From Alphaproteobacteria bacterium (GTDB lineage: Bacteria > Pseudomonadota > Alphaproteobacteria > Micavibrionales > UBA2020), in assembly GCA_030682495.1 (NCBI GenBank), contig JAUXOC010000039.1, positions 9,604 to 73,603 of the forward strand: 64,000 nt of DNA. The letters run 5' to 3'. Positions 2,228-43,316 of the stretch are shown one piece after another. The position numbers and the translations under genes are program-made. Below the pieces are notes generated by a model. The model had not been told where the DNA came from, did not search any database, and saw only the letters and a list, made by a program, of their open reading frames with translations. Positions within the stretch are counted from its first letter, which is position 1; the number at the start of each line of letters is the position of its first letter.

Positions 2228-3910
2228 ATGGCATCTTACCAATACGTTTATGTGATGAAAGACCTGTCCAAGGCCTATCAGGGCGGGAAAAAGGTGCTGG
2301 AGAATATTTACCTGAGCTTTCTGCCCGGTGTGAAAATCGGCGTGCTCGGCCCCAACGGTTCGGGTAAATCGACCTTGCTCAAGATCATGGCCGGTATCGA
2401 AAAGGATTTTCAAGGCGAGGCTTGGTCGGCCGAAGGCGCGCGCGTGGGCTATCTGCCGCAGGAGCCGCATCTGGATGCCAGCAAGACTGTCATGGAAAAC
2501 GTGCTGGAGGCGCTGGGCGAAGTGAAAGCCGCGCGCGACGAGTTTGACGCGATCACCGCCAAATTTTCCGAAGAAGATGCCGATTTCGATGCACTGATGG
2601 CGCGTCAGGCGGAGCTGCAGGAAATCATCGACGCGGCCGATGGCTGGAATATCGAGCGTACGGTCGAAATCGCCATGGATGCGCTGCGCTGCCCGCCGGC
2701 GGATAGCGCTGTGACCAACCTGTCGGGCGGTGAAAAACGCCGCGTCGCACTGTGCCGTTTGCTGCTGGAAAAGCCCGACCTGCTGCTGCTCGATGAACCG
2801 ACCAACCACCTAGATGCGGAATCGGTTGCATGGTTGCAGCGTCACCTGCTGGATTACAAAGGCACGGTTGTCATGGTCACGCACGACCGCTACTTCCTTG
2901 ATAATGTCACCGGCTGGATTCTCGAGCTCGACCGTGGCCGCGGTATTCCGTACGAGGGCAACTATACCGAATATCTCGACAACAAATCCAAACGTCTGGC
3001 GCAGGAAGGCCGCGAGCAGGAAGCCCGCGAAAAAACCCTGTCGCGCGAACTGGAATGGGTGCGTCAGTCGCCCAAGGCGCGTCAGGCGAAATCCAAGGCG
3101 CGTATCACGGCCTACGAAGATTTGTTCGCCGAAAGCCAGAAGTTCGAAAAGACCCGCACGTCGCAGATCGTTATCCCTGTGCCGCCGCGTCTGGGGCAGA
3201 ACGTCGTGGAATTTGAAAACGTATCCAAAGGATATGACGATCGTCTGCTGATCGAAAATCTGACGTTTAAATTGCCGCCGGGCGGTATCGTCGGTGTGAT
3301 CGGCCCCAACGGCGCCGGTAAAACCACGCTGTTCCGCATGATTACCGGCGAAGAAACACCGGATACGGGCAAGGTGACGGTGAGTGACAGCGTTGTCATG
3401 GGCTATGTGAACCAGAGCCGTGATTCGCTCGATGGCAACAAGACGGTCTGGGAAGAAATTTCCGAGGGAAATGATATCCTCGCCCTTGGCAAGCGTGACA
3501 TGCCGAGCCGCGCCTATTGCGGTTCTTTCGGCTTCCGCGGCCCCGACCAGCAGAAAAAAGTCGGCGTGCTGTCGGGCGGTGAACGTAACCGTGTGCATAT
3601 GGCGCGGATGATGAAAACGCCCGCCAACCTGCTACTGCTCGATGAACCGACCAACGATCTGGATACCGAAACGCTGGGCGCGCTCGAAGACGCGCTTGAA
3701 AACTATGCCGGCTGTGCGGTTGTGATCTCGCACGACCGCTGGTTCCTTGACCGTCTTGCCACGCATATCCTTGCGTTTGAGGGGGACAGTCAGGTTGTGT
3801 TCTTTGAAGGTAACTACGAAGACTACGAAAAAGACCGTAAGAAACGCTTCGGCGAAGATGCCGACCAGCCGCACCGCATCAAATACAAACCGCTGCGCCG
3901 CGCATCGTAG
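2228..3910 (+). CDS. ettA: ABC-F ATPase, energy-dependent translational throttle EttA
   Basis: 560 aa with two ABC cassettes. Walker A 'GPNGSGKST' and 'GPNGAGKTT', signatures 'LSGGEKRR' and 'LSGGERNR', Walker B 'LLLLDEPTN' twice. N-terminus 'MASYQYVYVMKDLSKAY' is typical of EttA. No TM domain. Confidence 0.92.
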   Translation: MASYQYVYVMKDLSKAYQGGKKVLENIYLSFLPGVKIGVLGPNGSGKSTLLKIMAGIEKDFQGEAWSAEGARVGYLPQEPHLDASKTVMENVLEALGEVKAARDEFDAITAKFSEEDADFDALMARQAELQEIIDAADGWNIERTVEIAMDALRCPPADSAVTNLSGGEKRRVALCRLLLEKPDLLLLDEPTNHLDAESVAWLQRHLLDYKGTVVMVTHDRYFLDNVTGWILELDRGRGIPYEGNYTEYLDNKSKRLAQEGREQEAREKTLSRELEWVRQSPKARQAKSKARITAYEDLFAESQKFEKTRTSQIVIPVPPRLGQNVVEFENVSKGYDDRLLIENLTFKLPPGGIVGVIGPNGAGKTTLFRMITGEETPDTGKVTVSDSVVMGYVNQSRDSLDGNKTVWEEISEGNDILALGKRDMPSRAYCGSFGFRGPDQQKKVGVLSGGERNRVHMARMMKTPANLLLLDEPTNDLDTETLGALEDALENYAGCAVVISHDRWFLDRLATHILAFEGDSQVVFFEGNYEDYEKDRKKRFGEDADQPHRIKYKPLRRAS

Positions 3911-4003
3911 GCATAGTCTTGCTGGCTCAAGCCCCCGCCTTGCCGCCGAAGGGGGCATGGCGATAGGGATTGGTTTTTAAGAATAGAGGCAGGCGCGCGC
4001 AAC

Positions 4004-4035
4004 AAAAAACCCGCCATCTTCTGGCGGGGTTTTTG
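4004..4035. terminator. Bidirectional intrinsic terminator (ettA / mlaC-like convergent pair)
   Basis: A-run, stem cccgcca (4010-4016), loop tcttc, stem tggcggg (4022-4028), then gtttttg. Confidence 0.65.
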
Positions 4036-4056
4036 TTTGCCGGTCGTCGGTGATCG

Positions 4057-4671
4057 TTATTTCTTGCGTCCGCGCAGGCTGACGAGGAGGCTTTCGACCT
4101 TGCCACCGCCGCGCTGGATAACCGCGTCAAAGTCGGAGCGTTGGGTGATCGCCATGCTGACGTTTTCGATGAAAACATCGATGACTTTTGGCTGGCCGCC
4201 GCTGTTGCGAACGCGCCATTCGATGGCAATCGGCGGGCCGCCCTGCTGGATGACCTGACTGGTCACGATGGTGTCGCGGTCATTGAGCACACGGGCGTTG
4301 TTGACCTTGAACTGCTGCCCGGAATATTCACTAAAACGCTGGGCATAGGTGCGCACGATCATGTCTTCGAACAGGGTTAGATATTCTTTGCGTTCTGCCT
4401 CGGTCGCGCTGCGCCAGTGCGTGCCCAGCGCGAAGCGGCCGATGGTCTGTACGTCGAAATTTTTGCGCAAGAGTTCACGCACGCGTTTCTGACGTTCCGC
4501 GCCGTTCAATTCTTTGTCAGTGAGTTCCGTCAGGGCGGAATCGCCCATTTTCTGCACAAAGCTAATGGTGGCATCCGTCTTTTTCTCGGCCATGGCAGCA
4601 GCGGCGGGCAGCAGCAGGGCGAGAACCATGCCTAGCATCATCACGCGGCGGGTCAGGGAGAGTGAAATCAT
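4057..4671 (-). CDS. mlaC: Periplasmic phospholipid-binding protein, MlaC/Ttg2D family
   Basis: 204 aa with a signal peptide (MLGMVLALLLPAAAAMA). Segments 'LLRKNFDVQTIGRFALGTHWRSAT..ER.EY..LFEDMIVRTYA' and 'WRV...GGQPKVIDV.IENVSM' resemble toluene-tolerance Ttg2D/MlaC. Lies downstream of the mlaA-like gene. Confidence 0.78.
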   Translation of the reverse strand: MISLSLTRRVMMLGMVLALLLPAAAAMAEKKTDATISFVQKMGDSALTELTDKELNGAERQKRVRELLRKNFDVQTIGRFALGTHWRSATEAERKEYLTLFEDMIVRTYAQRFSEYSGQQFKVNNARVLNDRDTIVTSQVIQQGGPPIAIEWRVRNSGGQPKVIDVFIENVSMAITQRSDFDAVIQRGGGKVESLLVSLRGRKK

Positions 4672-4713: not shown

Positions 4714-5508
4714 TTATTCCCAGCCCTCATCGTAATATTGAACCGCCTGCGGCTTGGCCGGAGCATCAGGGTTAATGTCGCGCACCAGCGAACGGCGCTT
4801 CTGCGTATAGGCGCTGCGCACGGCAGCGTAGTAATCAAGGCTGTTGCGGCGCATATCGCGCACGGCACTCACCAGTCTTGCACGGTTGTCGAGCCCCTCG
4901 ACCGCGCCGCGCGTGTAGTAAATCCATTTTTCGTCGCGGTTGAAGGCATAGAGCCTCACAGGATCCGCAAAAGTATCGACCGCAAGGCCTGCACCGTCAC
5001 GCAGGGAGGAAGGCCCCAGCACCGGCAAGACCAGATAGAAGCCCTCACCAAAGCCCCAGACGGCCAGAGTCTGGCCGAAATCTTCCGGCTCGTACGGCAG
5101 GCCGTTTGCGCCCGCCATGTCGAAAAGACCGCCAATACCGCCGACGGTATTCATGACGAAACGCGCTGTGGCCACGCCTGCGCCTTTGAAATCGCCTTGC
5201 AGTACATTATTTGCAACGATCAGCGGACTGCGAAGGTTCCGCATGAAATTTTGCACACCTGCGCGGAAGAAGTCGGGTGTCAGGAAATTATAAACCTTTG
5301 CAACGGGTTCGATCAGCGCACGGTCAAGTGCGTTGTTGAAAGCGAAGACACCGCGGTTCAGAGGCTCCAGCGGGTCATAAACCGCATTGGGTTGCAGCTC
5401 GCTCCGTGCGCTGCTGCAGCCGGTGGTGGCGGCCAGAAGAAAGGCGCACATCACCATGGCGATGGATTTGGAAGCGGTTTTGAGCAGGAAGGGGCGATTC
5501 TGGGGCAT
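4714..5508 (-). CDS. mlaA: Outer-membrane lipoprotein MlaA/VacJ family
   Basis: 264 aa with a lipobox-like 'LLAATTGCSS'. 'YDPLEPLNRGVFAFNNALDRALIEPVAKVY' matches the VacJ DP-E-NR signature. Confidence 0.85.
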   Translation of the reverse strand: MPQNRPFLLKTASKSIAMVMCAFLLAATTGCSSARSELQPNAVYDPLEPLNRGVFAFNNALDRALIEPVAKVYNFLTPDFFRAGVQNFMRNLRSPLIVANNVLQGDFKGAGVATARFVMNTVGGIGGLFDMAGANGLPYEPEDFGQTLAVWGFGEGFYLVLPVLGPSSLRDGAGLAVDTFADPVRLYAFNRDEKWIYYTRGAVEGLDNRARLVSAVRDMRRNSLDYYAAVRSAYTQKRRSLVRDINPDAPAKPQAVQYYDEGWE

Positions 5509-5573
5509 GGATGTCTCTCTGACGGGGCCGTTGTTTTTACTTTAACTATATATAATTACTCAATTCTTAATTG

Positions 5574-6665
5574 CTAGCCATCTTCCATATGCAAAAGAGC
5601 CGAGGCGCCCATGAGCAGACTGACGATGGCGGGTGTCCAGGCCGCCAGATACACAGGGATTTTCTGCGAAATGCCGAAAGCTTGAAGAATAGATTCCATG
5701 AAGAATATAAAGAAACCAACGCCCACGCCAAGACCTATCATAACCCCTGTACCCCCGAATCTTTGCGGGCGTAGCGAAAATGTCGCAGCCAGCAGCACCA
5801 TGGCTGCCAGCAGGAAGGGGAGTGCCAGCAAAGACTGGAAGTGAATGGCGAGCCGCGTGCCCGAAAAACCCGCCTCTGTCATAATGCGGAGATATTCTGG
5901 GATCCTCCAAAACGATACAGTTTCGGGATTGGCGAAAGATTCTTCAATCTGCCGCGCCGTGAGCTCTGTCGGCAGCTGAACGATATCGGCTGTGCGCGCG
6001 CCCTCTGCCGTATTGATCCGCGCATCGGCCAGTTCCCAAAACCCGTCATCAAGACGGGCGCGGGGACTGTCGACCCTTTTCTGGAAAGTGTCGTCACGGT
6101 CAAAAAAGAAGACAATCACGTCCTGCATGCGCCAATGCTGCTGGTCGAAACTGCTGGCATGGAACAGGGCATAGCCTTCCTCTGCCGGCTGGCGCAGCCA
6201 GATGCCGGTGCGCGAAACGGTGACCAGATTGGATGATGTGTTGAAATACGCGCTTTCCAGCCGCTCGAATTTTTCAAGCATAATGGCGCTTGCCGGATTG
6301 ACCGCCGTTGTTACCGCAACGCCGATCAGAAAAGCGCCCAAAATCATCGGGCTCAGAAATTGCCAGACCGAAATGCCGGCGGCGCGTATCACCACCAGCT
6401 CGGATGTCTTGTTGAGCTTCCAGCAGGTATAGATCGCGCCGAACAGCACGGCGAAGGGAATGACTTTCTGCCCGACTTCCGGCAGCTTCAGCGCGGCCAT
6501 CATCAGGACGATATTGATCGACACATCCTGCGCACCTGACGCGCGGCGCATCAGTTCGATGACATCAAAGATAAAAACAAGCCCGAAGAGAATCATCACC
6601 AGCGCGGCGAAATTCACCAGAAAGTGCCGGAGGATATAACGGAAAAGGGTTGCGCTGGCTGTCAT
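5574..6665 (-). CDS. lptG: LPS export ABC transporter permease LptG
   Basis: YjgP/YjgQ-type permease. The start was chosen at the internal ATG 6663-6665 ('MTASATLFRYILRHFL'), which makes an ATGA overlap with the lptF stop. The ORF track's earlier ATG is at 6707. Confidence 0.85.
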   Translation of the reverse strand: MTASATLFRYILRHFLVNFAALVMILFGLVFIFDVIELMRRASGAQDVSINIVLMMAALKLPEVGQKVIPFAVLFGAIYTCWKLNKTSELVVIRAAGISVWQFLSPMILGAFLIGVAVTTAVNPASAIMLEKFERLESAYFNTSSNLVTVSRTGIWLRQPAEEGYALFHASSFDQQHWRMQDVIVFFFDRDDTFQKRVDSPRARLDDGFWELADARINTAEGARTADIVQLPTELTARQIEESFANPETVSFWRIPEYLRIMTEAGFSGTRLAIHFQSLLALPFLLAAMVLLAATFSLRPQRFGGTGVMIGLGVGVGFFIFFMESILQAFGISQKIPVYLAAWTPAIVSLLMGASALLHMEDG

Positions 6666-7816
6666 GCTGTCGCCCCTTCTGCGGCTGTCACAGGGGACCG
6701 TCGCCATTTACGCAAGAGTGCCATCAGCCATTGTTCGCCGCGCAGGTGCATCAGAAAAGCCGCAACGATAATCGGTACAAAAGTAAGGGCGTAAAGCGTG
6801 GGCAACAACATGGGCTGCTTTTTGGCGGCGTTGCCCAGTGCCATTTCGGCAGCCTGCAGGCCGATGACAATAAGAATGGCGGCAAGAACCTTGCGGTTTT
6901 GTCCGCGCCGGTTAAAGGGGCCGAGCAAGATACAGGCGAGCGATACCAGCGTAAACCCGAGCGCATTGAACGGCGCGAGCAGGCGCAGATGTGCTTCGAC
7001 GATAAAGGCATCTTTGAAGCGCAGGTCGCGTTTGTCTTCCAGATCCGGACGCAGCAGTTCGGGCAGGGTGCGCTCGCTTGCTTCACGCCAGCGCTCCTGC
7101 GCCTCGCCCTCCAGCCCTTTGATCTCGATGGTGTAGCGCGAGAAGAACAGGCGCGACACCACGCCGTTCTGCGGGTCCATCTGCTGGCGCATGCCGTCAT
7201 AGACAAGAATATTCGGCTCTTCGCCGTTCATGAAAATGCGGCCGCGCTTGGCGGTGACGGTGACAGGGGGCTTGTCCGTATCGCGGCGGTCATGAATCAT
7301 CAGCCCGAGCAAATCGCCCGCGGCGTCGCGCTGGCGGACATAGACTGTCAGGTCGTTGCTGAAAGTATTGAACACTCCTTCGCGCAGCAAAAATGCCGAA
7401 TACTGCGCCTTGATCTCGCGGCGCAGCTTTTTCATCTCCCCGTGGCTCAAGGGGGAGATGAAGCAGGTGATCGCGATCAATACCACCATGAAGGCGCTGC
7501 ACAGGATCAGCGCCGGGCGCGCCAGTGTGAACTGGTCAAAGCCGCAGGCGCGCATGACGACCAGCTCATTGTCCATAATCATTTTATTATAGGTAAAGAG
7601 GATGCCGGTCACCAGCGCCAGCGGCAGGATCACCTCAAGAAACCGCGGCAGGGTCAGCGCGATCAGTTTCAGAAAAAGGCTTGGCGGTGCATCGGAATTG
7701 GCGACCAGCTCCAAAAGACGCAAAGACTGGCTCAGCCAGATAACCAAAGCCAGCGTGACGGCCACAAATACCGTTACGGAAAAAAGGTTTTTGAAAAGAT
7801 ACCGCGTGGTCAGCAT
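6662..7816 (-). CDS. lptF: LPS export ABC transporter permease LptF
   Basis: YjgP/YjgQ-type permease. The start was chosen at 'MLTTRYLFKNLF' (ATG 7814-7816). The 40-aa upstream extension in the ORF track is basic and low-complexity. Classical divergent arrangement with pepA. Confidence 0.85.
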   Translation of the reverse strand: MLTTRYLFKNLFSVTVFVAVTLALVIWLSQSLRLLELVANSDAPPSLFLKLIALTLPRFLEVILPLALVTGILFTYNKMIMDNELVVMRACGFDQFTLARPALILCSAFMVVLIAITCFISPLSHGEMKKLRREIKAQYSAFLLREGVFNTFSNDLTVYVRQRDAAGDLLGLMIHDRRDTDKPPVTVTAKRGRIFMNGEEPNILVYDGMRQQMDPQNGVVSRLFFSRYTIEIKGLEGEAQERWREASERTLPELLRPDLEDKRDLRFKDAFIVEAHLRLLAPFNALGFTLVSLACILLGPFNRRGQNRKVLAAILIVIGLQAAEMALGNAAKKQPMLLPTLYALTFVPIIVAAFLMHLRGEQWLMALLRKWRRSPVTAAEGATA

Positions 7817-35036: not shown

Positions 35037-36251
35037 ATGGCCACAGAAATCATCGTCCCCGCCCTCGGCGAATCCGTCAAGGAAGCGACTGTCGCGAAAT
35101 GGCTCAAAAACGTCGGCGATGCTATCGCCGTTGACGAGCCTTTGGTCGAACTGGAAACCGACAAGGTGACGCTGGAAGTGAACGCCAAATCCGCAGGCGT
35201 TTTGAAAGAAATCAAAGTACAGACCGGCAGCAATGTCGAGGTTGGCGCGATTCTGGGCTTTATCTCCGAAGGCGGCGTTGCTGCGGCCAAAGCCGATAAA
35301 AAAGCCCCCGCAGCGAAGGCCGAAGCGCCCAAGGCGCAGCAGGCCGCTGCCAAGGCCTCCAACAATGATACTTTTCTGTCGCCCGCGCCGCGCAAAATCG
35401 CCGATGACAACGCTCTGGATGTTTCCGGTCTGCAAGGCTCCGGCAAAGATGGCCGCGTGACCAAGGGGGATGTGCTCGAAGCGCTCAAAGCGCCCGCTGC
35501 TGCACCTGCCGCCAAATCGCCCGCGCAGCCGTCCGGTCCGCGCAGCAAGGCCGACCGCGAAGAGCGCGTCAAGATGACCCGTCTGCGCCAGCGCATTGCC
35601 GAGCGTTTGAAAGAAGCGCAAAACACTGCCGCACTGCTGACGACGTTCAACGAAGTCGACATGAGCCATATCATCGCCCTGCGCAACCAGTACAAAGACA
35701 GCTTTGAAAAGAAACACGGCATCAAACTCGGTTTCATGTCTTTCTTCGTCAAGGCGGCCATTCAGGCGCTCAAAGATTTTCCCGCCGTGAATGCGGAAAT
35801 CGACGGCACCGATATTGTTTATAAAAATTACTACGATATCGGCGTGGCCGTTTCGACGCCCAGCGGCCTTGTCGTGCCGGTGGTGCGTGATGCGGATATC
35901 AAAGGTTTTGCCGGTATTGAAAAAGAGATCGGCGATCTCGGCCTGCGCGCCCGCGATGGTAAACTGGGGCTGGAAGATCTCTCCGGCGGCACTTTTACCA
36001 TCACCAACGGCGGCGTTTTTGGCTCTCTGCTCTCCACGCCGATCATCAACCCGCCGCAATCGGCCATTCTGGGCATGCATGCGACCAAAGAGCGCGCCGT
36101 TGTTGTGAACGGTCAGGTCGTTGCGCGCCCGATGATGTATATCGCGCTCAGCTATGACCACCGTATCATCGACGGCAAAGAAGCGGTCTCCTTCCTCGTG
36201 CGCATCAAAGACGCCATCGAAGATCCGCAGCGCCTGCTGCTCGACGTTTAA
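35037..36251 (+). CDS. sucB: Dihydrolipoyllysine-residue succinyltransferase (E2o)
   Basis: 404 aa. Lipoyl domain '[10 protein letters not shown]', an Ala/Pro linker, an E3-binding segment, and the catalytic '[13 protein letters not shown]'. Confidence 0.95.
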
Positions 36252-36259
36252 AACAGGGA

Positions 36260-36279
36260 GGGGCGCCGCAAGGCGCCCC
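36260..36279 (+). terminator. GC-rich hairpin after sucB (weak or leaky terminator, or stabiliser)
   Basis: Stem ggggcgcc / ggcgcccc with GCAA loop, followed by 'gttcttatg'. The U-tract is poor, and the next start codon is 7 nt downstream. Confidence 0.35.
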
Positions 36280-36285
36280 GTTCTT

Positions 36286-37020
36286 ATGCGTATTGTTCTT
36301 TGCTTGCTATTGTTTCTGGCTTTTCCGGTGCCCGTGTTTGCGCAGCCCGCTGCACCGCAGGCCGTGGGTGATTACGTTGTGCTGATGCACGGCATCGGGC
36401 GCAGCCCTGCGGCCATGAAGAAAATGGAAGCCGATCTGCGCCGCCGCGGCTATGGGGTGCTTAATCTCGGCTATGACTCGCGCAAACATTCTATCGCGGC
36501 ATTGGTGGATAATATGCATGCAGATGTCGATGCCTTTGCGGTCGATAAAACGCGCAAGTTACATTTTGTCGGGCATTCGATGGGCGCACTTGTCATTCGT
36601 GCCTATGCGCAAAAATACAAACCGGCCAATATGGGACGCATCGTCGCGCTCGGCAGCCCGAATACCGGCAGCGAAGTGGCAGATTTCCTGAGCCAGAGCA
36701 GTCTCTACGAAAAATTTTACGGCCCCGCAGGGCTTGAACTGACGACGGTTTACCGCGCCGAACACACCTTTGACAAACCGTTTTACGAGATCGGCACAAT
36801 CGCGGGCGACCGGACGATTGACCCGCTGTCATCCGTGATTATTCCGGGCGACGATGATGGCAAGGTATCGATTGCCAGCACGCATGTGGCGGGCGAAAAA
36901 GACCACATCGTCCTGCATGCCAACCACGCCACGATGCCGTCAAATGCGGCGGTTATCATTGAAACCGCACATTTTCTGCAATACGGCTTTTTCAAGCGGG
37001 CGGGGAATATGCCGCGTTAA
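36286..37020 (+). CDS. Secreted alpha/beta hydrolase, lipase/esterase-like
   Basis: 244 aa. Signal peptide 'MRIVLCLLLFLAFPVPVFAQ', 'VVLMHGIGRS', nucleophile 'GHSMGA', later 'DDDGKV' and 'NHATM'. Confidence 0.6.
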   Translation: MRIVLCLLLFLAFPVPVFAQPAAPQAVGDYVVLMHGIGRSPAAMKKMEADLRRRGYGVLNLGYDSRKHSIAALVDNMHADVDAFAVDKTRKLHFVGHSMGALVIRAYAQKYKPANMGRIVALGSPNTGSEVADFLSQSSLYEKFYGPAGLELTTVYRAEHTFDKPFYEIGTIAGDRTIDPLSSVIIPGDDDGKVSIASTHVAGEKDHIVLHANHATMPSNAAVIIETAHFLQYGFFKRAGNMPR

Positions 37021-37030
37021 CGATTTTTTG

Positions 37031-37068
37031 GCGGGCATCACCCTATAATATTTAGCGGGCGTCGCCCT
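37031..37068 (+). promoter_or_regulatory. Candidate promoter/operator of the DUF433-DUF5615 pair
   Basis: TATAAT at 37044-37049 is flanked by imperfect direct repeats gcgggcatcaccct (37031-37044) and gcgggcgtcgccct (37055-37068). Located about 30-65 nt upstream of the DUF433 start. No convincing -35 element. Confidence 0.3.
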
Positions 37069-37096
37069 GTCATAACCGAGAAAGAGGGAGAGCCGT

Positions 37097-37321
37097 ATGG
37101 CGCTCGAGGAATGGCTGAGCCAAAGCGATGATGTGATGAGCGGGCAGCTGGTGTTTCGCGGCACGCGCGTCCCTGTCTGCGTGCTGTTCGATAACCTGCG
37201 TGATGGTCTGCCTCTTGATGAAATTCTGTCATCCTACCCGACCATCCCGCGCGCCGCGGCAGAGGCCGTTCTCGAATACGCGCTACAATGCGTGCAGGAC
37301 GGAGCGGAGGGCGGGCTGTGA
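37097..37321 (+). CDS. DUF433-family small protein (antitoxin-like partner)
   Basis: 74 aa with a GAGGGAG SD. 'MSGQLVFRGTRVPVCVLFDNLRDGLPLDEILSSYPTIPRAAAEAVLEYA' matches the DUF433 pattern (G-x-P-x-x-x-GTR[IV]-x-V ... YP-x-[LI]). Confidence 0.7.
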   Translation: MALEEWLSQSDDVMSGQLVFRGTRVPVCVLFDNLRDGLPLDEILSSYPTIPRAAAEAVLEYALQCVQDGAEGGL

Positions 37322-37743
37322 AGAAGAAAATCCTGATCGACGAATGCCTGCCCTTGCGCCTTGCTGCCTGGCTCGGTGACCATGATGCGGAAACAGTCTC
37401 CTACAGGGGCTGGGCCGGAAAAGACGATGGCGAAATTCTTAAACTGGCCGAGCAGGCCGGGTTTGATATCCTGCTGACGGCGGATGCCAATATCAAAGAC
37501 CAGCGCAAGCTGGAGGGAATGAACCTGTCCGTTGTCGCTATCCCGACCAATCGCCAGCATGTGGTTGAAAGTATTCTGCCGCAGATACGTCAGTCGGTCG
37601 GTCTTGCAGAACCGGGTGCCTTCGTGGTGTTGTCCTTCACCACGCCGGATTTCGGGCAGTGGCGCGACCGGTCGGAATGCACGGAAATACGCGCTGAAAA
37701 ATCCGTGCAGCACAAATACGCGCTGCCCGCGGTCAAAGGGTAA
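37318..37743 (+). CDS. DUF5615/Mut7-C-like PIN-fold protein (toxin-like partner)
   Basis: GTG 37318-37320 overlaps the DUF433 stop (GTGA), with a GGAGGG SD 6 nt upstream. 'KKILIDECLPLRLAAWLGDHD...GWAGKDDGEILKLAEQAGFDILLTADANI' matches the remembered DUF5615 pattern. An alternative ATG is at 37288. Confidence 0.62.
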   Translation: MKKKILIDECLPLRLAAWLGDHDAETVSYRGWAGKDDGEILKLAEQAGFDILLTADANIKDQRKLEGMNLSVVAIPTNRQHVVESILPQIRQSVGLAEPGAFVVLSFTTPDFGQWRDRSECTEIRAEKSVQHKYALPAVKG

Positions 37744-37755
37744 CTCAAAAGATCA

Positions 37756-38748
37756 TCAGATGCCGAGGGAGCCTTGCTTCGGCGCGGCGGGCGCGTTTTT
37801 CGGGTTCGGTTTTTCGTCGGGTGTGAATTGTGTTGCGCTCACAACCTTCCAGTGCATGTCGACAAAAACAACAGGGCGGTTTTCATCCAGCTCCCGCCGT
37901 GCGCGCTGCGCCTCGTGCCAATGCAGTGACGGGCGGGCGATCAGATGCACGACTTCACCACGCAGGGTCTGGCGGAATTTATCGTCGGTATCGGCGCGCT
38001 GCAGCAGCACGATGCGCTGGCCGGGTTTTTTGAAAATATTGATTGGCGTGCCGCGCAGTGCTTTGGTGCGTCCCTCGCGGCTGCCTTCGGTCGCGCTAAA
38101 GCGGATCAAGCGCGGGAAATCGGTGATCTCCTGCACGCTGTGAATGGCATCGGGACCGTCTTTGACCTGCCGCGGTGTCGATTGCAACGTCAGGTACATA
38201 TTGTTCAGCAGCGAGCGGTATTTATCTTTGCTGTCGATGACGAATTCATCAAGCGGCAGGGTCTTGCCCTGATAGTTTACGCGGGTTCTGGCGCGGGCGG
38301 CATCGCCGCCTTTTTCGTTGATGGTGTCGATATAATCCAGCATATCTTCGATATTGCGCGCACCGACGGCAACATAATCACGCACTTCATTCGTGCTCGA
38401 CTGGCAAACCAGCGCGCCGGCAACGCCGTTAAAATTTTCCATCAACCGGACGTTGAGGTTGATGACAATGTTTTTGTTTTCGCGAATGGCCTGTTCCAGC
38501 GATTTGCGGTGCTTGGCCTGAATGGCCAGCTGCTCATGCGCATTGCAGTCGTGGATATGATCTTTGACGCTTTTGGAAAAGAAATGCGCACTTTTGAGCG
38601 CAAGGCTGCCGTGGGTGAGGGCTTCTTTGCGAAACCCCATCTGTGCGCCGCAATCCGGATCGGCGCAGTGCAGGTCGCTGCCGTGCTCGTCGCGTTTATA
38701 TTGATGGGCCAAAACCACTTGTCCGTCGGCCAGTCGTGCTTTTTTCAT
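37756..38748 (-). CDS. Hypothetical 330-aa protein with an N-terminal CoiA-like zinc-ribbon/'HF' motif; the rest is unrecognised
   Basis: 'LHCADPDCGAQMGFRKE....KSAHFFSKSVKDHIHDC' shows C-x4-C ... HF ... H-x-H-x-C, reminiscent of CoiA-type N-termini. No PD-(D/E)xK or other catalytic motif found by eye. Convergent with the DUF5615 gene, 12-bp gap. Confidence 0.55.
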   Translation of the reverse strand: MKKARLADGQVVLAHQYKRDEHGSDLHCADPDCGAQMGFRKEALTHGSLALKSAHFFSKSVKDHIHDCNAHEQLAIQAKHRKSLEQAIRENKNIVINLNVRLMENFNGVAGALVCQSSTNEVRDYVAVGARNIEDMLDYIDTINEKGGDAARARTRVNYQGKTLPLDEFVIDSKDKYRSLLNNMYLTLQSTPRQVKDGPDAIHSVQEITDFPRLIRFSATEGSREGRTKALRGTPINIFKKPGQRIVLLQRADTDDKFRQTLRGEVVHLIARPSLHWHEAQRARRELDENRPVVFVDMHWKVVSATQFTPDEKPNPKNAPAAPKQGSLGI

Positions 38749-38855
38749 GTCCGTTGTCCCCGCTTGCGCGCATTTAACATAACAAAATAACCGGTGGGCG
38801 ACAAGAGAAAGTTGCCAAATCTCTGAAAAAGAATAGAATTCTCTTTATAAAAGGT

Positions 38856-38886
38856 GAAAGGGCCGGTGTTACGGACCGGCCCTTTC
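38856..38886. terminator. Orphan perfect 12-bp-stem hairpin in a divergent intergenic region
   Basis: gaaagggccggt (38856-38867), loop gttacgg, accggccctttc (38875-38886). U-richness is moderate on both strands (+: ttccttg; -: cacctttta). No annotated gene ends here. Confidence 0.4.
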
Positions 38887-39127
38887 TTCCTTGTAGACAC
38901 CCTCTATCAAGAAACTTCTTCGACAGCAAAGGAGATCGCTTGAATCGAAGATTCCCGAATATCAAACCACACGATTCGCGTCAAGAGAGTTTCTTTATAA
39001 AACAGCATTTTACAGAATGATTATGACCTTTCGGACGGGCGCGCCGCGGGGCATTTGACTCGAAAGCAGGGCATATTTCGCGTAGAGTCGGCACAGAAAA
39101 ACGCTGCAAAAAAACAAAGAGGGAAAT

Positions 39128-40534
39128 ATGTCTGACAGTTTTGATCTGGTTGTGATCGGCTCCGGCCCCGGCGGCTATGTTTGCGCCATTCGCGCCGCGC
39201 AGCTGGGTCTGAAAACCGCCTGCATCGAGAAAGACAATACGCTCGGCGGTACTTGCCTTAACGTGGGCTGTATCCCGTCCAAGGCGCTGTTGAGCGTGTC
39301 GGAAAAGTTTTCGCATGCGGAGCATGACTTTGCCGGCCTTGGCATCGATGTGGGCAAGCCGAAGCTCGATCTCAAAAAAATGATGACGCACAAAGATAAA
39401 GTCGTGGCAGCGAATACGCAGGGCATCAGCTTCCTGTTCAAGAAAAACAAAGTGACGCATCTGGTCGGCACGGGCAGCATTACGGCTGCGGGTACTGTGG
39501 AGGTCAGCGGAAAAGACGGTAAAAAAACAACGGTACAGGCAAAGAATATTGTCATCGCCACGGGGTCTGAATCGACGCCGCTGCGCGGGATAGAGGTTGA
39601 TGAAAAACAAATCGTGACGTCCACCGGCGCATTAACACTCGACAAAGTGCCTGCCAGTCTGGCGGTGATTGGCGGCGGCGTGATCGGTCTTGAAATGGGC
39701 ACGGTCTGGCAGCGCCTCGGCGCGAAGGTCACCGTGATTGAATTCCTCGACCGCGTATTGCCGGGTATGGACATGGAAGTGTCCAAGGAAATGAAAAAAA
39801 TCCTCGGTAAACAGGGGATGGAATTCAAGCTGGGTACCAAGGTCACCGGTGCGGAGACGAAGAAGGGTAAAGTGACCCTGACGCTCGAAGCGGCCAATGG
39901 CGGCAGTGCCGAAAAACTGGAAGTCGAAACGGTGCTGGTCGCCATCGGCCGCCGCCCTTATACAGCGGGTCTGGGGCTTGAGAAAGTCGGCGTGAACGTG
40001 GATAACCGCGGCGTTGTTGAAATCGACGATCATTTCCAGACCAATGTGCCCGGCATCTATGCCATCGGTGACGTCGTGCGCGGCCCCATGCTGGCGCACA
40101 AGGCCGAAGACGAAGGCGTGGTGGTTGCCGAAATTATTGCAGGGCAATCGGGGCATATCAATTACGATGCCATTCCGGGCGTGGTCTATACTTTCCCCGA
40201 AGCCGCCAGTGTCGGTAAAACCGAAGAGCAGCTGAAAGAGTCCGGCATCCCCTACAAAACCGGCAAGTTCCCCTTCATGGCCAATGGCCGTGCGCGCGCC
40301 ATGGCGGCAACGGATGGTTTTGTCAAAATTCTCGCGCATGCGGAAACAGATCTGGTCCTCGGCTGCCATATCGTCGGCCCCGAAGCAGGCACACTGATCG
40401 CCGAGGTGGTGGCGGTCATCGAATTTGGCGGCAGCGCCGAAGACATCGCACGCATCTGTCATGCGCATCCGACGCTCAACGAAACAGTCAAGGAGGCGGC
40501 GCTGGCGGTTGACGGCCGCCCGATCCACATATGA
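39128..40534 (+). CDS. lpdA: Dihydrolipoyl dehydrogenase (E3)
   Basis: 468 aa. FAD motif 'VVIGSGPGGYVCAIRAAQLG', redox disulfide 'GGTCLNVGCIPSKALL', NAD motif 'VIGGGVIGLEMG', C-terminal 'HAHPTLNE'. Confidence 0.95.
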   Translation: MSDSFDLVVIGSGPGGYVCAIRAAQLGLKTACIEKDNTLGGTCLNVGCIPSKALLSVSEKFSHAEHDFAGLGIDVGKPKLDLKKMMTHKDKVVAANTQGISFLFKKNKVTHLVGTGSITAAGTVEVSGKDGKKTTVQAKNIVIATGSESTPLRGIEVDEKQIVTSTGALTLDKVPASLAVIGGGVIGLEMGTVWQRLGAKVTVIEFLDRVLPGMDMEVSKEMKKILGKQGMEFKLGTKVTGAETKKGKVTLTLEAANGGSAEKLEVETVLVAIGRRPYTAGLGLEKVGVNVDNRGVVEIDDHFQTNVPGIYAIGDVVRGPMLAHKAEDEGVVVAEIIAGQSGHINYDAIPGVVYTFPEAASVGKTEEQLKESGIPYKTGKFPFMANGRARAMAATDGFVKILAHAETDLVLGCHIVGPEAGTLIAEVVAVIEFGGSAEDIARICHAHPTLNETVKEAALAVDGRPIHI

Positions 40535-41112
40535 TGTACCGCATGAGGATTATCGCCGCCGTTTTTCTGGTCGCTGTTTTATGCGCGCCCCTGCATCCCG
40601 CAGCGGCGCAGCAACCGGATACCGTGGCGACCGAAGCAAATACGCTGTTCGACAGTCTCTGCCTTGCCTATCTTGGCCACGGACACGAAATGCTGGATCA
40701 GGCTTATTCTATCGGCGCTTCCGCCATTCCGCAGATGTTTGCGCAGCAGTTTCTCGGCAAACACCGCGGCGTTGCACTGACGGTTCCGGGCAGCGGCAGT
40801 CTTTACATGCTGGGCTTAACCGAGCAGCCATCTTGTTTGATCGCCGCGCCAGAGGCCAATGCGGCAGCGGTGATGAAAGTCTTTGCCGAAGGCAGCCGCC
40901 GATTGCCTGTCACCTATGGCGAAGTAGACGGACAGCATCAACAGGTCTATGCGGTTATCCGGAAGGACGCTGTTTCGGGTCAGCAGAAGCGAATGATTGT
41001 CATTGCAACCATGTCGCCGCAAGAAGGCGTACGGGGCGTCATCTTGAATGCCCTACCTGCAAAAACGGCTGCCGATATCGGTATTGTGCCTGAAAAATGG
41101 CCGGAAGAATAA
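40531..41112 (+). CDS. Hypothetical exported protein
   Basis: The ATG overlaps the lpdA stop (ATGA). Signal peptide 'MRIIAAVFLVAVLCAPLHPAAA' (the start may instead be 40543). No domain recognised. A terminator follows. Confidence 0.5.
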   Translation: MMYRMRIIAAVFLVAVLCAPLHPAAAQQPDTVATEANTLFDSLCLAYLGHGHEMLDQAYSIGASAIPQMFAQQFLGKHRGVALTVPGSGSLYMLGLTEQPSCLIAAPEANAAAVMKVFAEGSRRLPVTYGEVDGQHQQVYAVIRKDAVSGQQKRMIVIATMSPQEGVRGVILNALPAKTAADIGIVPEKWPEE

Positions 41113-41175: not shown

Positions 41176-41418
41176 TTAGGTTTTAAACGTCGGCACAACG
41201 CGGTGGCCACCGATGTTTTGCGGCATGCGCTCCAGATCGGGCGCGGTATTGTCCGCGAAAACAAAGCGGATCACCGGCTCGCGGCTGTCGATATCAATCA
41301 CCATATTCACGTCGACGAGTTGTGATGCAAAATCACGCGCCACGCTTTCGATTTGCTGGGCAACGCGGTTGAAAAGACTGTCCAGATCGCGGTCAGTCCA
41401 GTTACGGGGGGAAGTCAT
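41176..41418 (-). CDS. Hypothetical small acidic protein, 80 aa
   Basis: ORF with normal composition lying between a terminator and the hutU upstream region. No family recognised. Confidence 0.4.
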
Positions 41419-41612
41419 GGTATCACCTTCTATATCTTGTCTTTTTTATGGTTGGGTTTCGATCTTCAAAAAAATGCGGCGCTGCCGCAAGATCGAAGCA
41501 AGGGAATATCTGCCTGTTTTATGTAACTGTCAACCGCTTTGCAATGCCCTGTTGCTTTATGCGGCAATGGTGTATGGTTTTATATCATTATTTCAAACAG
41601 TTAAGGTGTGCC

Positions 41613-43316
41613 ATGTCTGCTGAACCCGCACGCGTGAACAAACGCATCATCAAAGCGCCACGCGGCAGCGTGCTGAATGCCAAATCATGGCTGACCGAAG
41701 CGCCGCTGCGCATGCTCATGAATAACCTCGACCCCGACGTTGCCGAAAATCCGGACGAGCTGGTTGTCTATGGCGGCATCGGTAAGGCGGCGCGCAATTG
41801 GGAATCTTTTGACAAGATTGTCGAGACGCTTAAAAATCTCAACGCTGATGAAACGCTTCTGGTGCAATCCGGCAAGCCGGTCGGCGTGTTCAGGACGCAC
41901 AAAGATGCGCCGCGTGTGCTGCTTGCCAATTCCAACCTTGTACCGAATTGGGCCGACTGGGCGCATTTCCGCGAACTGGATGCCAAGGGTTTAATGATGT
42001 ACGGCCAGATGACGGCAGGGTCGTGGATTTATATCGGTACGCAAGGGATTGTGCAGGGAACCTATGAAACCTTTGTCGAAGTGGGCCGCCAGCATTACGG
42101 CGGCGATCTGAAGGGCAAATGGTTTCTGACCGGCGGGCTTGGCGGTATGGGCGGTGCGCAGCCGCTGGCCGCCACCATGGCGGGCGCATCGATGCTGGCG
42201 GTAGAGTGCCAGATGAGCCGTATCGAGCGCCGCCTCGCCACGCGCTATCTCGACAAAAAAGCAACGGCGCTGGATGAAGCGGTGGAGATGATCCACGCCG
42301 CACATGCGCAGGGAAAAACGATATCTGTCGGCCTTCTCGGTAATGCGGCAGAAATTTTCCCCGAACTGGTCAAACGTGCAAAGGCAGACCCGAAATTCCG
42401 CCCCGATGCCGTGACTGACCAGACATCGGCGCATGATCCTCTCAATGGTTATCTGCCCGCCGGCTGGACATGGGCAGAGGCGGAGCAAAAACGCCAAAGC
42501 GCCCCCGATGAAGTGATCCATGCCGCCAAGCAATCCATGAAAGTGCATGTACAGGCGATGCTGGATTTCTACGCTATGGGCATTCCGACCCTCGACTACG
42601 GCAATAATATCCGTGCGATGGCCGAGGAGGAGGGGCTCGAAAACGCTTTCGGCTTTCCGGGATTTGTGCCCGCCTATATCCGCCCGCTGTTTTGCCGAGG
42701 CATTGGCCCGTTCCGCTGGGCGGCGCTGTCGGGTGATCCGGACGATATTTATAAAACCGACGCGAAGGTCAAAGAACTGCTACCTGACAATAAACATCTG
42801 CACAACTGGCTCGATATGGCGAGGGAACGCATCCAGTTTCAAGGGCTGCCCGCGCGGATTTGCTGGGTGGGGCTGGGCGACCGCGCACGCCTCGGCCTTG
42901 CGTTTAATGACATGGTAAAAAGCGGCGAGCTTTCCGCGCCGGTCGTCATCGGTCGCGACCATCTGGACAGCGGCTCCGTCGCCAGCCCTAACCGCGAAAC
43001 GGAAGCGATGAAAGACGGATCGGATGCTGTATCCGACTGGCCGCTCTTGAATGCGCTTTTGAATACCGCCAGCGGCGCGACATGGGTATCGCTGCATCAT
43101 GGCGGTGGTGTCGGCATGGGGTTTTCGCAGCACAGCGGCATGGTCGTTGTCGCGGATGGTACCGACGATGCCGCCCGCCGCTTGCAAAACGTGCTGACCA
43201 ATGACCCCGCCACAGGCGTGATGCGCCACGCCGATGCCGGGTATGATATCGCCATCGACTGCGCGCGTGAAAAGAAACTGCACCTGCCCATGATTTCCGG
43301 TGCCAAAGGAGCCTAG
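41613..43316 (+). CDS. hutU: Urocanate hydratase
   Basis: 567 aa from ATG 41613. '[26 protein letters not shown]', '[16 protein letters not shown]' and '[12 protein letters not shown]' are HutU blocks. Confidence 0.95.

Follow-up and report, generated by a model that had tools for sequence, protein, structure and literature searches.

The window analyzed here is a stretch of 64,000 nucleotides from contig JAUXOC010000039.1 (assembly GCA_030682495.1, positions 9,604 to 73,603 of the forward strand) of an alphaproteobacterium in the Micavibrionales lineage UBA2020; NCBI taxonomy places Micavibrio under Bdellovibrionota. It carries a run of tricarboxylic acid (TCA) cycle genes in the order mdh, sucC, sucD, sucA, and sucB, separated by short gaps (2, 88, and 33 bp reported), after which 2,876 bp lie between the sucB stop and the start of lpdA. 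This interval contains a gene for a secreted hydrolase, a predicted toxin-antitoxin (TA) pair of DUF433 and DUF5615 proteins, a convergent gene for a basic protein that is called the orphan below, and a spacer in which a perfect 12-bp hairpin stands. Comparison with related loci indicates that the interval is probably a stack of four layers that differ in age, namely the orphan, a small RNA gene in the spacer, the hydrolase, and the TA cassette, and not one island. What is new in it is an undescribed family of candidate small RNAs with a fixed address and an uncharacterized family of zinc-site proteins; the TA cassette is of a known kind.

All of the features that a first-pass annotation had read from this interval (the GC-rich hairpin after sucB, the hydrolase, the DUF433/DUF5615 pair, the orphan, the spacer, and the 12-bp hairpin) are present where it had placed them. 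They are listed here with the flanking genes and the predicted elements discussed below.

35037-36251, plus strand: sucB, E2 component of 2-oxoglutarate dehydrogenase and left anchor of the interval (Pfam Biotin_lipoyl, E3_binding, and 2-oxoacid_dh)
36260-36279, plus strand: GC-rich hairpin after the sucB stop, with 8 G-C pairs and the hydrolase start 6 nt further on
36286-37020, plus strand: secreted alpha/beta hydrolase of 244 amino acids, lipase/esterase-like (Palm_thioest at 47.6 bits and Abhydrolase_1/6, above cut-offs)
37021-37755, no strand assigned: TA cassette, lying where the stops of the hydrolase and the orphan converge, the sole accessory block, marked by a drop in identity to the relative L014
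37031-37068, plus strand: promoter/operator-like region of the cassette, with TATAAT and two 14-nt direct repeats read from the sequence
37097-37321, plus strand: DUF433 (COG2442) predicted antitoxin (PF04255 at 59.3 bits against a cut-off of 23.6; PDB 2ga1, E 0.004)
37318-37743, plus strand: DUF5615 PIN-like predicted toxin of the COG4634/PIN_10, Mut7-C group (PF18480 at 36.5 bits, above cut-off)
37756-38748, minus strand: orphan, a basic protein of 330 amino acids (pI 9.25), convergent with the TA pair
38776-38804, minus strand: promoter-like element of the orphan, with −35 TTGTCG (38804..38799), a 17-nt spacer, and −10 TATGTT (38781..38776)
38846-38958, minus strand: candidate small RNA gene, conserved in 7 of 7 aligned lineages (covariance model score 114 bits)
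38856-38886, minus strand: perfect 12-bp hairpin, the predicted intrinsic terminator of the small RNA, with the loop CCGUAAC and then ACCUUUU
38957-38984, minus strand: promoter-like element of the small RNA, with TTGACG (38984..38979), 12 nt, and TTTGATATTC (38966..38957)
39055-39096, plus strand: conserved block, probably the lpdA promoter/operator, with TTGACTCGAA (39055-39064) and GCGTAGAGTCGGCACAG (39080-39096)
39128-40534, plus strand: lpdA, E3 dihydrolipoyl dehydrogenase and right anchor, divergent from the small RNA and the orphan (Pyr_redox_2 and Pyr_redox_dim)

Distribution of the interval genes among relatives

Homologs of the orphan at 44-100% identity form 41 clusters, every one derived from metagenome-assembled genomes, and genomic context was read across the range of orphan identity in ∼30 related loci, which carry L numbers here. 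Six layouts were found.

Orphan 86-96% identical (L014; L001/L002/L024/L035/L038; L022/L039): layout as in the window, with hydrolase, DUF433, DUF5615, and the opposite-strand orphan
Orphan 70-76% identical (L003/L004; L006; L020; L042): hydrolase and orphan with stops a few bp apart, without the TA pair
Orphan 50-52% identical (L007/L013; L009/L023): only the orphan between sucB and lpdA
Orphan ∼50% identical (L005/L012; L010; L031): no adjacent sucB or hydrolase, orphan still divergent from lpdA
Orphan 44-46% identical (L008/L015; L011; L016; L017; L019; L025; L026): hydrolase and orphan, without the TA pair
Orphan ∼33% identical (L033, a more distant alphaproteobacterial contig): same orientation of the orphan, converging with sucB and diverging from lpdA

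Every lineage examined at 100-44% identity, and the one at ∼33%, has the orphan in the sucB-lpdA interval or, if sucB has moved away, beside lpdA; in L005, L010, and L031, the orphan and copies of the small RNA remain upstream of lpdA even though sucB and the hydrolase are not adjacent. Because it is kept next to lpdA across this range, the orphan is an old resident of the position, and it is the oldest layer of the interval, a stable chromosomal resident in Micavibrio-like bacteria. Family members at 17-29% identity sit in unrelated housekeeping contexts. One lineage has two tandem orphan paralogs (L031 2025-3892, L032), the ortholog P0024 and the 33%-identical P0049, and in L031 these adjoin three RNA copies and are followed by a TPR-sulfotransferase gene, which likewise comes after the orphan in L005.

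The hydrolase is an old, sometimes missing neighbor, with orthologs at the same position in most relatives (47-88% identity). Its identities of 88, 78, 71, 63, and ∼50% parallel the 96, 89, 86, 73, and ∼45% of the orphan, and it has been vertically inherited in most lineages. The TA pair has a much narrower distribution: it is confined to the closest clade, in which the orphan is at least 86% identical, and is absent where the orphan is at most 76% identical, and in relatives without it, the hydrolase and orphan stop codons are ∼0-10 bp apart. Nucleotide identity to the nearest relative, L014, is 0.86-0.93 across sucB, the orphan, and lpdA, 0.79-0.93 over the hydrolase, and 0.99 over the small RNA, and it falls to 0.45-0.80 only over 36996-37785. 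At the protein level, the TA pair is 80% and 65% identical to that of L014, compared with 96-98% for the flanking proteins. The TA cassette is therefore the youngest layer. It would have been dropped, as a 0.73-kb unit with its own promoter, between the convergent stops in an ancestor of the closest clade, and would since have diverged or been replaced much faster than its surroundings.

Two points weigh against so simple an ordering. The fast divergence of the cassette may reflect rapid evolution in place and not replacement, and the patchy occurrence of the hydrolase fits either repeated loss or an early insertion, the two being indistinguishable here. The first-pass annotation had taken the interval for an accessory island of ∼2.9 kb and had seen, in the TA-like pair beside the zinc-ribbon protein, the look of a small defense or addiction islet. 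The accessory character stands for the pair, a genuine DUF433/DUF5615 pair found in the closest clade only, and fails for the rest, as the orphan persists at the locus in relatives without the pair and the hydrolase is mostly vertical. It had also stated that the interval would be ancestral core context if its four genes kept their order throughout the order or family, and this is the pattern seen for the orphan and largely for the hydrolase, with the TA pair departing from it.

Downstream of lpdA, hutU (41448-43316 in the window) is followed in relatives by Lyase_aromatic/hutH and FGase/hutG, and because these hut genes come after lpdA in nearly all lineages, mdh-suc-lpdA-hut synteny is conserved around the variable interval. 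Two small open reading frames without Pfam matches lie between lpdA and hutU. The first (40531-41112, plus strand) has 193 codons, overlaps the lpdA stop by 4 nt, is 94% identical in L014, 63% in L024, and 47% in L022, is absent from L003 and L006, and may represent a second lineage-specific gene gained by the transcription unit of lpdA. The second (41176-41418, minus strand) has 80 codons and is probably a real small protein, because a gene of exactly 80 amino acids is called at the same position and in the same orientation in L001, L003/L004, and L006.

The proteins of the interval

A profile search against 1.84 billion representatives places the orphan in a family of 164 clusters. Across 66 distant members (∼17-45% identity), the only invariant columns are the four residues of an N-terminal CCHC site, C28, C33, H64, and C68, and these residues indicate a predicted zinc site of the zinc-ribbon or treble-clef type. 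The AlphaFold2 model, with a confidence score (pLDDT) of 78 and a predicted TM-score (pTM) of 0.65, combines an N-terminal beta-hairpin zinc module with two alpha/beta domains. Searches gave no match in Pfam, NCBIfam, PADLOC, or PHROGs, nor in the PDB sequences with either the single sequence or a profile as query, and Foldseek comparison of the model with PDB and BFVD returned nothing credible (best E values of 0.11 and 0.023, with TM-scores below 0.2). A YTH match (E 0.006, below cut-off) was dismissed because the loop where it lies is modeled with low confidence. Among the 66 distant members, no Pfam or PADLOC family is found repeatedly, the PADLOC matches being isolated and confined to single members, and a word-indexed search with the distant family alignment recovered mostly the same orthologs again.

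The first-pass annotation had called this zinc ribbon CoiA-like. The likeness lies in an N-terminal Cys-X4-Cys ... His-X3-Cys arrangement after a short beta element, but profile searches lend the label no support: neither the orphan nor its first 90 residues nor any of the 66 family members matches a CoiA model in Pfam, and none of the acidic catalytic residues of a PD-(D/E)xK nuclease is conserved throughout the family. Upstream of the orphan, the promoter-like element is conserved in five single-copy lineages with the consensus TTGCCT..ATTTTGTTATGTTAAAT and is not clearly aligned in L008 and L009.

DUF433 (COG2442) proteins are predicted antitoxins of PIN toxins (Makarova et al., PMC2701414), and COG4634/PIN_10 toxins with DUF433 partners, including Mycobacterium tuberculosis VapBC45, fall in the Mut7-C group of PIN-like proteins (Matelska et al., PMC5499597). 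By its domains, the pair in the window belongs to this known, mostly predicted type II TA family. The genes are co-directional with the antitoxin first, and the predicted toxin starts at the GTG of a GTGA overlap with the DUF433 stop, so that the antitoxin-first order, the 4-nt overlap, and the DUF433 and DUF5615 domains are all shared with VapBC45 (Rv2018/Rv2019) and with ssl8008/sll8007 of Synechocystis plasmid pSYSG. A promoter-like region of its own, a patchy spread, and paired plasmid homologs are further traits that the pair has in common with DUF433-PIN systems. The PIN_10 match of the toxin itself is below cut-off (18.4 bits); an Asp after the first strand (ILIDE) and a TADAN motif were read by eye. 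Homologs of the toxin are paired with DUF433 on cyanobacterial plasmids, as in sll8007/ssl8008, at an identity of only 33-42%, and the window toxin also differs from these relatives in a C-terminal tail of ∼35 amino acids that extends past the Pfam domain (141 amino acids in total, compared with 134 in L001). An exact 12-nt direct repeat, AAATACGCGCTG, occurs twice in this 3′ tail (37685-37696 and 37714-37725, 29 nt apart) and may be a small duplication.

Upstream of DUF433, TATAAT (37044-37049) is bracketed by the 14-nt direct repeats GCGGGCaTCaCCCT (37031-37044) and GCGGGCgTCgCCCT (37055-37068), in which GCGGGCNTCNCCCT repeats, and these are plausible operator sites. The region is not conserved in L014, L024, or L022. 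By inference from other PIN-type pairs, a labile DNA-binding antitoxin would autoregulate the operon and neutralize a PIN-like ribonuclease.

The hydrolase has a signal-peptide-like N-terminus, MRIVLCLLLFLAFPVPVFAQ, and a GHSMG nucleophile elbow. The elbow, the N-terminal alpha/beta core, and the secretion signal are shared with family I bacterial lipases of Burkholderia and Pseudomonas (PDB 1hqd, 1ys1, and 1tah) and with palmitoyl-protein thioesterase-like alpha/beta hydrolases; the matches to family I lipases are weak, covering ∼70 residues near the elbow (E ∼1e-4), and the hydrolase has only 244 amino acids. The hairpin in front of it is probably a leaky intrinsic terminator of sucCDAB, because a GC hairpin after sucB is kept in 7 of 9 relatives examined, mostly with a T-run (L008 and L007 are the two without it), and the T-run in the window, GTTCTTATG, is weak. 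As the hairpin abuts its start codon, the hydrolase would be transcribed only by read-through past this leaky terminator or from a promoter within sucB.

The candidate small RNA gene

The spacer between the orphan and lpdA (38749-39127) is 379 bp long with a GC content of 0.454, compared with 0.566 for the window, so the lower-GC spacer of ∼380 bp that had been described is real, with the low GC limited to the spacer. The orphan-lpdA spacers of seven lineages were aligned, and they share a minus-strand block whose conservation far exceeds that of the flanking proteins, even where those are ∼45% identical. The predicted transcript of ∼105 nt, from ∼38955 to 38846, contains no AUG. It folds with an energy of −45.9 kcal/mol (z = −5.0) and consists of a 5′ stem-loop termed P1 (38955-38943 paired with 38925-38911), with UCUCC (38935..38931) as an invariant part of its loop, a single-stranded linker, UAGAGGGUGU (38906..38897), with an invariant UAGAG(R)GUG, and the 12-bp hairpin. 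This hairpin had been set down as terminating no annotated gene, and it can now be read, with good probability, as the terminator of a conserved, undescribed, and unannotated small RNA gene. A plus-strand promoter-like site (38812-38839), which would place the hairpin in a 50-nt RNA, was rejected, because the sequence there is not conserved and the tail on the plus strand has few T residues.

The structure is conserved as well as the sequence. RNAalifold, run on an unfitted MAFFT alignment, recovered P1 and the terminator stem with compensatory changes that are most striking in L007. A covariance model was then built from 11 copies, with the terminator register refined by hand, and it finds exactly one copy in the window and 1-4 tandem copies per locus elsewhere. 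Among 34 distinct copies, 94.9% of cells are paired compared with 87.5% in shuffles, none of 500 shuffles attaining the observed figure; double changes occur in 11 of 25 pairs, and partners slid by 1-3 columns score far lower. All of these counts are biased toward structure, because the alignment had been fitted to the model. The sequence of P1 hardly varies, which suggests that pairing is not the only constraint on it. In the window, no Rfam 15 family reaches its gathering threshold, and none recurs below threshold among the copies; the best sub-threshold match, PtaRNA1 (26 vs 47 bits), covers only the hairpin, and other copies match different families.

Upstream of the RNA, the element tTTGAC..cgaatc....g.TTTGATATTC precedes essentially all of 37 distinct upstream sequences with few substitutions, and each unit of a tandem array has its own promoter-like motif and its own terminator. 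Pattern scans found 18 stretches in 185,579 species genomes and 8 in metagenomes, all of them in the interval upstream of lpdA; 25 of these 26 directly adjoin lpdA, and in L041 one gene intervenes. The RNA is present in every lineage with a 44-100% identical orphan in which the upstream spacer was read.

Copy number varies among relatives, with one copy in the clade of the window, three in tandem in some others, and three plus a fragment in L017 (3524-4163). Arrays were also found in L005 (6147-6892), L031 (1296-1859), L019, L026, L027, and L016 with L018. Some units have an additional hairpin that separates P1 from the linker. The array of one genome is located at two contig ends (L011 and L021), which suggests that the repeats break assemblies.

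The promoter-like motif and the terminator suggest that the ∼105-nt RNA would be independently transcribed and intrinsically terminated upstream of the orphan, on the same strand. From its exposed sequences, we infer that it may be a trans-acting riboregulator of the anti-Shine-Dalgarno type, in which the CUCC loop and the UAGAGRGUG linker would pair with purine-rich, Shine-Dalgarno-like regions of mRNAs encoded elsewhere. AbcR1/2 and CcsR1-4 are multi-copy, trans-acting small RNAs of alphaproteobacteria with C/U-rich anti-Shine-Dalgarno loops. Compared with these, the RNA shares a length of ∼100 nt, a stem-loop that exposes CUCC, an intrinsic terminator, and an occurrence in 1-4 tandem units, each with a promoter-like motif of its own, and it differs in its combination of a single CUCC loop with the UAGAGRGUG linker, in its fixed address upstream of lpdA, in a distribution restricted to the Micavibrio-like lineages found here, and in having no Rfam match. 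SdhX is an enterobacterial small RNA processed from the sucD 3′ untranslated region, on the sense strand at the 3′ end of sdhCDAB-sucABCD. Both RNAs are embedded among TCA-cycle genes; unlike SdhX, the RNA in the window has its own promoter-like element, lies on the strand opposite the suc genes and lpdA, and has no sequence relation to it.

Several observations weigh against this account of the RNA. The compensatory changes are concentrated in the terminator (8 of 12 pairs), with only 3 of 13 in P1. The −10 region (GATATT/TATTCG) fits sigma-70 spacing imperfectly, and the RNA, its 5′ end, and both promoters are drawn from conservation and consensus. No convincing target emerged: pairing of the loop or linker with neighboring start regions is at background and inconsistent between lineages: in seed-restricted tests against the starts of mdh, sucCDAB, the hydrolase, the orphan, lpdA, and hutU at ten loci, z was mostly within 2 in either direction. 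Whole-RNA duplex energies against 51 start regions of the window are dominated by long spurious duplexes, and the complement of the linker, ACACCCTCTA, shows no excess of matches in the window. A 15-nt complementarity between the RNA (38917-38931) and the orphan coding sequence (38226-38240) was rejected as being at chance level and not kept in other lineages.

Probable control region upstream of lpdA and alternative readings

The lpdA gene appears to be its own transcription unit and would be transcribed from its own conserved upstream region, in which TCGAGTCAA is invariant in seven lineages with a 22-nt spacing that misfits a plain sigma-70 promoter. The motif TTGACNCGAA occurs both here (39055-39064) and as the −35 element of most copies of the small-RNA promoter (38975-38984 in the window), and the divergent lpdA and small RNA units may share a regulator or a promoter type.

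Because the orphan stays divergently paired with lpdA and the intergenic blocks are conserved, a regulatory or nucleic-acid-binding role is the best guess for it, though one of low confidence. The more specific idea that it is a DNA-binding regulator of the divergent lpdA promoter, the small-RNA promoters, or both can coexist with the layered picture; it is a possible but unlikely guess. It would account for a divergence from lpdA that is kept from 100% to ∼33% identity even with sucB unlinked, for the strong conservation of the upstream blocks and the sharing of TTGACNCGAA, and for a basic protein with an invariant CCHC site; yet no helix-turn-helix or known DNA-binding domain was detected in the orphan, no structural neighbors were found in PDB or BFVD, the upstream regions of lpdA and the RNA are conserved in lineages without the orphan at the locus, and synteny alone is weak evidence for regulation.

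Two other readings tie the RNA more closely to the orphan. As an RNA element upstream of the orphan on the same strand, with a terminator ∼100 nt before the orphan start, it has the layout of a transcription attenuator and could be a cis-acting leader, attenuator- or riboswitch-like, that controls read-through into the orphan. This is improbable: in L036 and L041 the element is retained between sucB and lpdA and no orphan follows it, tandem units each have a promoter-like motif and a terminator, the orphan has a conserved promoter-like element of its own downstream of the terminator, and riboswitch and leader families in Rfam gave no match. In L041, the interval is filled by genes for an LpxR outer-membrane lipid A deacylase and an unannotated protein of 235 amino acids (3422-4459 and 5050-5757) beside two RNA copies.

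It is more improbable still that the orphan and the RNA form a dedicated pair, either a module resembling type III TA systems or an RNA with the orphan as its chaperone or nuclease. The order of RNA repeats, terminator, and protein gene does recall type III systems, the RNA accompanies all of the 44-100% identical orphans for which the spacer was read, and the orphan is basic with a zinc site. However, L036 and L041 have the RNA without the orphan, and L033 has kept the orphan with no RNA found, so the RNA is neither the leader nor an obligate partner of the orphan. Distant orphan paralogs have unrelated neighborhoods that lack the RNA, inheritance of the orphan gene is stably vertical and not patchy, and PADLOC type III toxin models are unmatched. 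The short repeat array, endoribonuclease toxin, and strict co-occurrence that define ToxIN-like type III systems are likewise not what is seen, as most loci have a single copy and the ∼105-nt units are spaced ∼180-330 bp apart, unlike processed repeats of 34-36 nt. In L033, the lpdA-orphan spacer holds a gene for a 99-amino acid MazG-like dATP/dGTP pyrophosphohydrolase (6638-6937).

The composition of the interval bears on whether it was acquired as a whole. Third-position GC content (GC3) is 0.63-0.69 for the four interval genes and 0.65-0.68 for sucA, sucB, lpdA, and hutU, and the codon score of the orphan (−0.91) equals that of sucB and lpdA, so that the GC and codon-usage comparison suggested in the first-pass annotation shows host-like genes and no island signature. 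No flanking direct repeats were found and Rfam found no tRNA in the window, integrases not having been searched for. Nor does a defense role fare better, since none of the four proteins matches PADLOC-DB v2 at E values up to 0.1. That the entire 2.9 kb is one horizontally acquired accessory, defense, or addiction islet, with the orphan as partner of the TA pair, is hardly credible: an otherwise tight operon is interrupted, the TA pair is genuine, and an unannotated orphan adjoins it, but the orphan is at the locus in every lineage without the pair, composition is host-like, PADLOC gives no matches, no orphan homologs were found on the plasmids or phages searched, flanking repeats were not found, and divergence from the nearest relative is confined to 37021-37755.

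An odd gene cluster inside a core operon that looked like one mobile islet is thus reduced by comparison to 0.73 kb of accessory DNA, and guilt-by-association searches for defense islands would be misled by the orphan here. Nothing in these results overturns current views, as new small RNA families and dark-matter protein families turn up often. The orphan family, with at least 164 clusters at 50% identity, an invariant CCHC site, and no detectable fold relatives, is a reasonable target for structural and functional work. The hairpin that had stood unexplained becomes a concrete small RNA candidate with defined ends, a structure, a promoter motif, and a variable copy number. The literature searched contained no papers on Micavibrio small RNAs and described no riboregulators in Micavibrio-like predators, and the fixed address of this RNA upstream of lpdA suggests a link to central metabolism. 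A bolder and rather doubtful extension is that the CUCC-loop RNA, the new-fold CCHC protein, and lpdA make up a lineage-specific regulatory module of these predators, in which the orphan would be a previously unseen nucleic-acid-binding regulator of the intergenic region or of the RNA, and the RNA, in its 1-4 copies, would tune the translation of distant mRNAs in step with the TCA-cycle or redox state.

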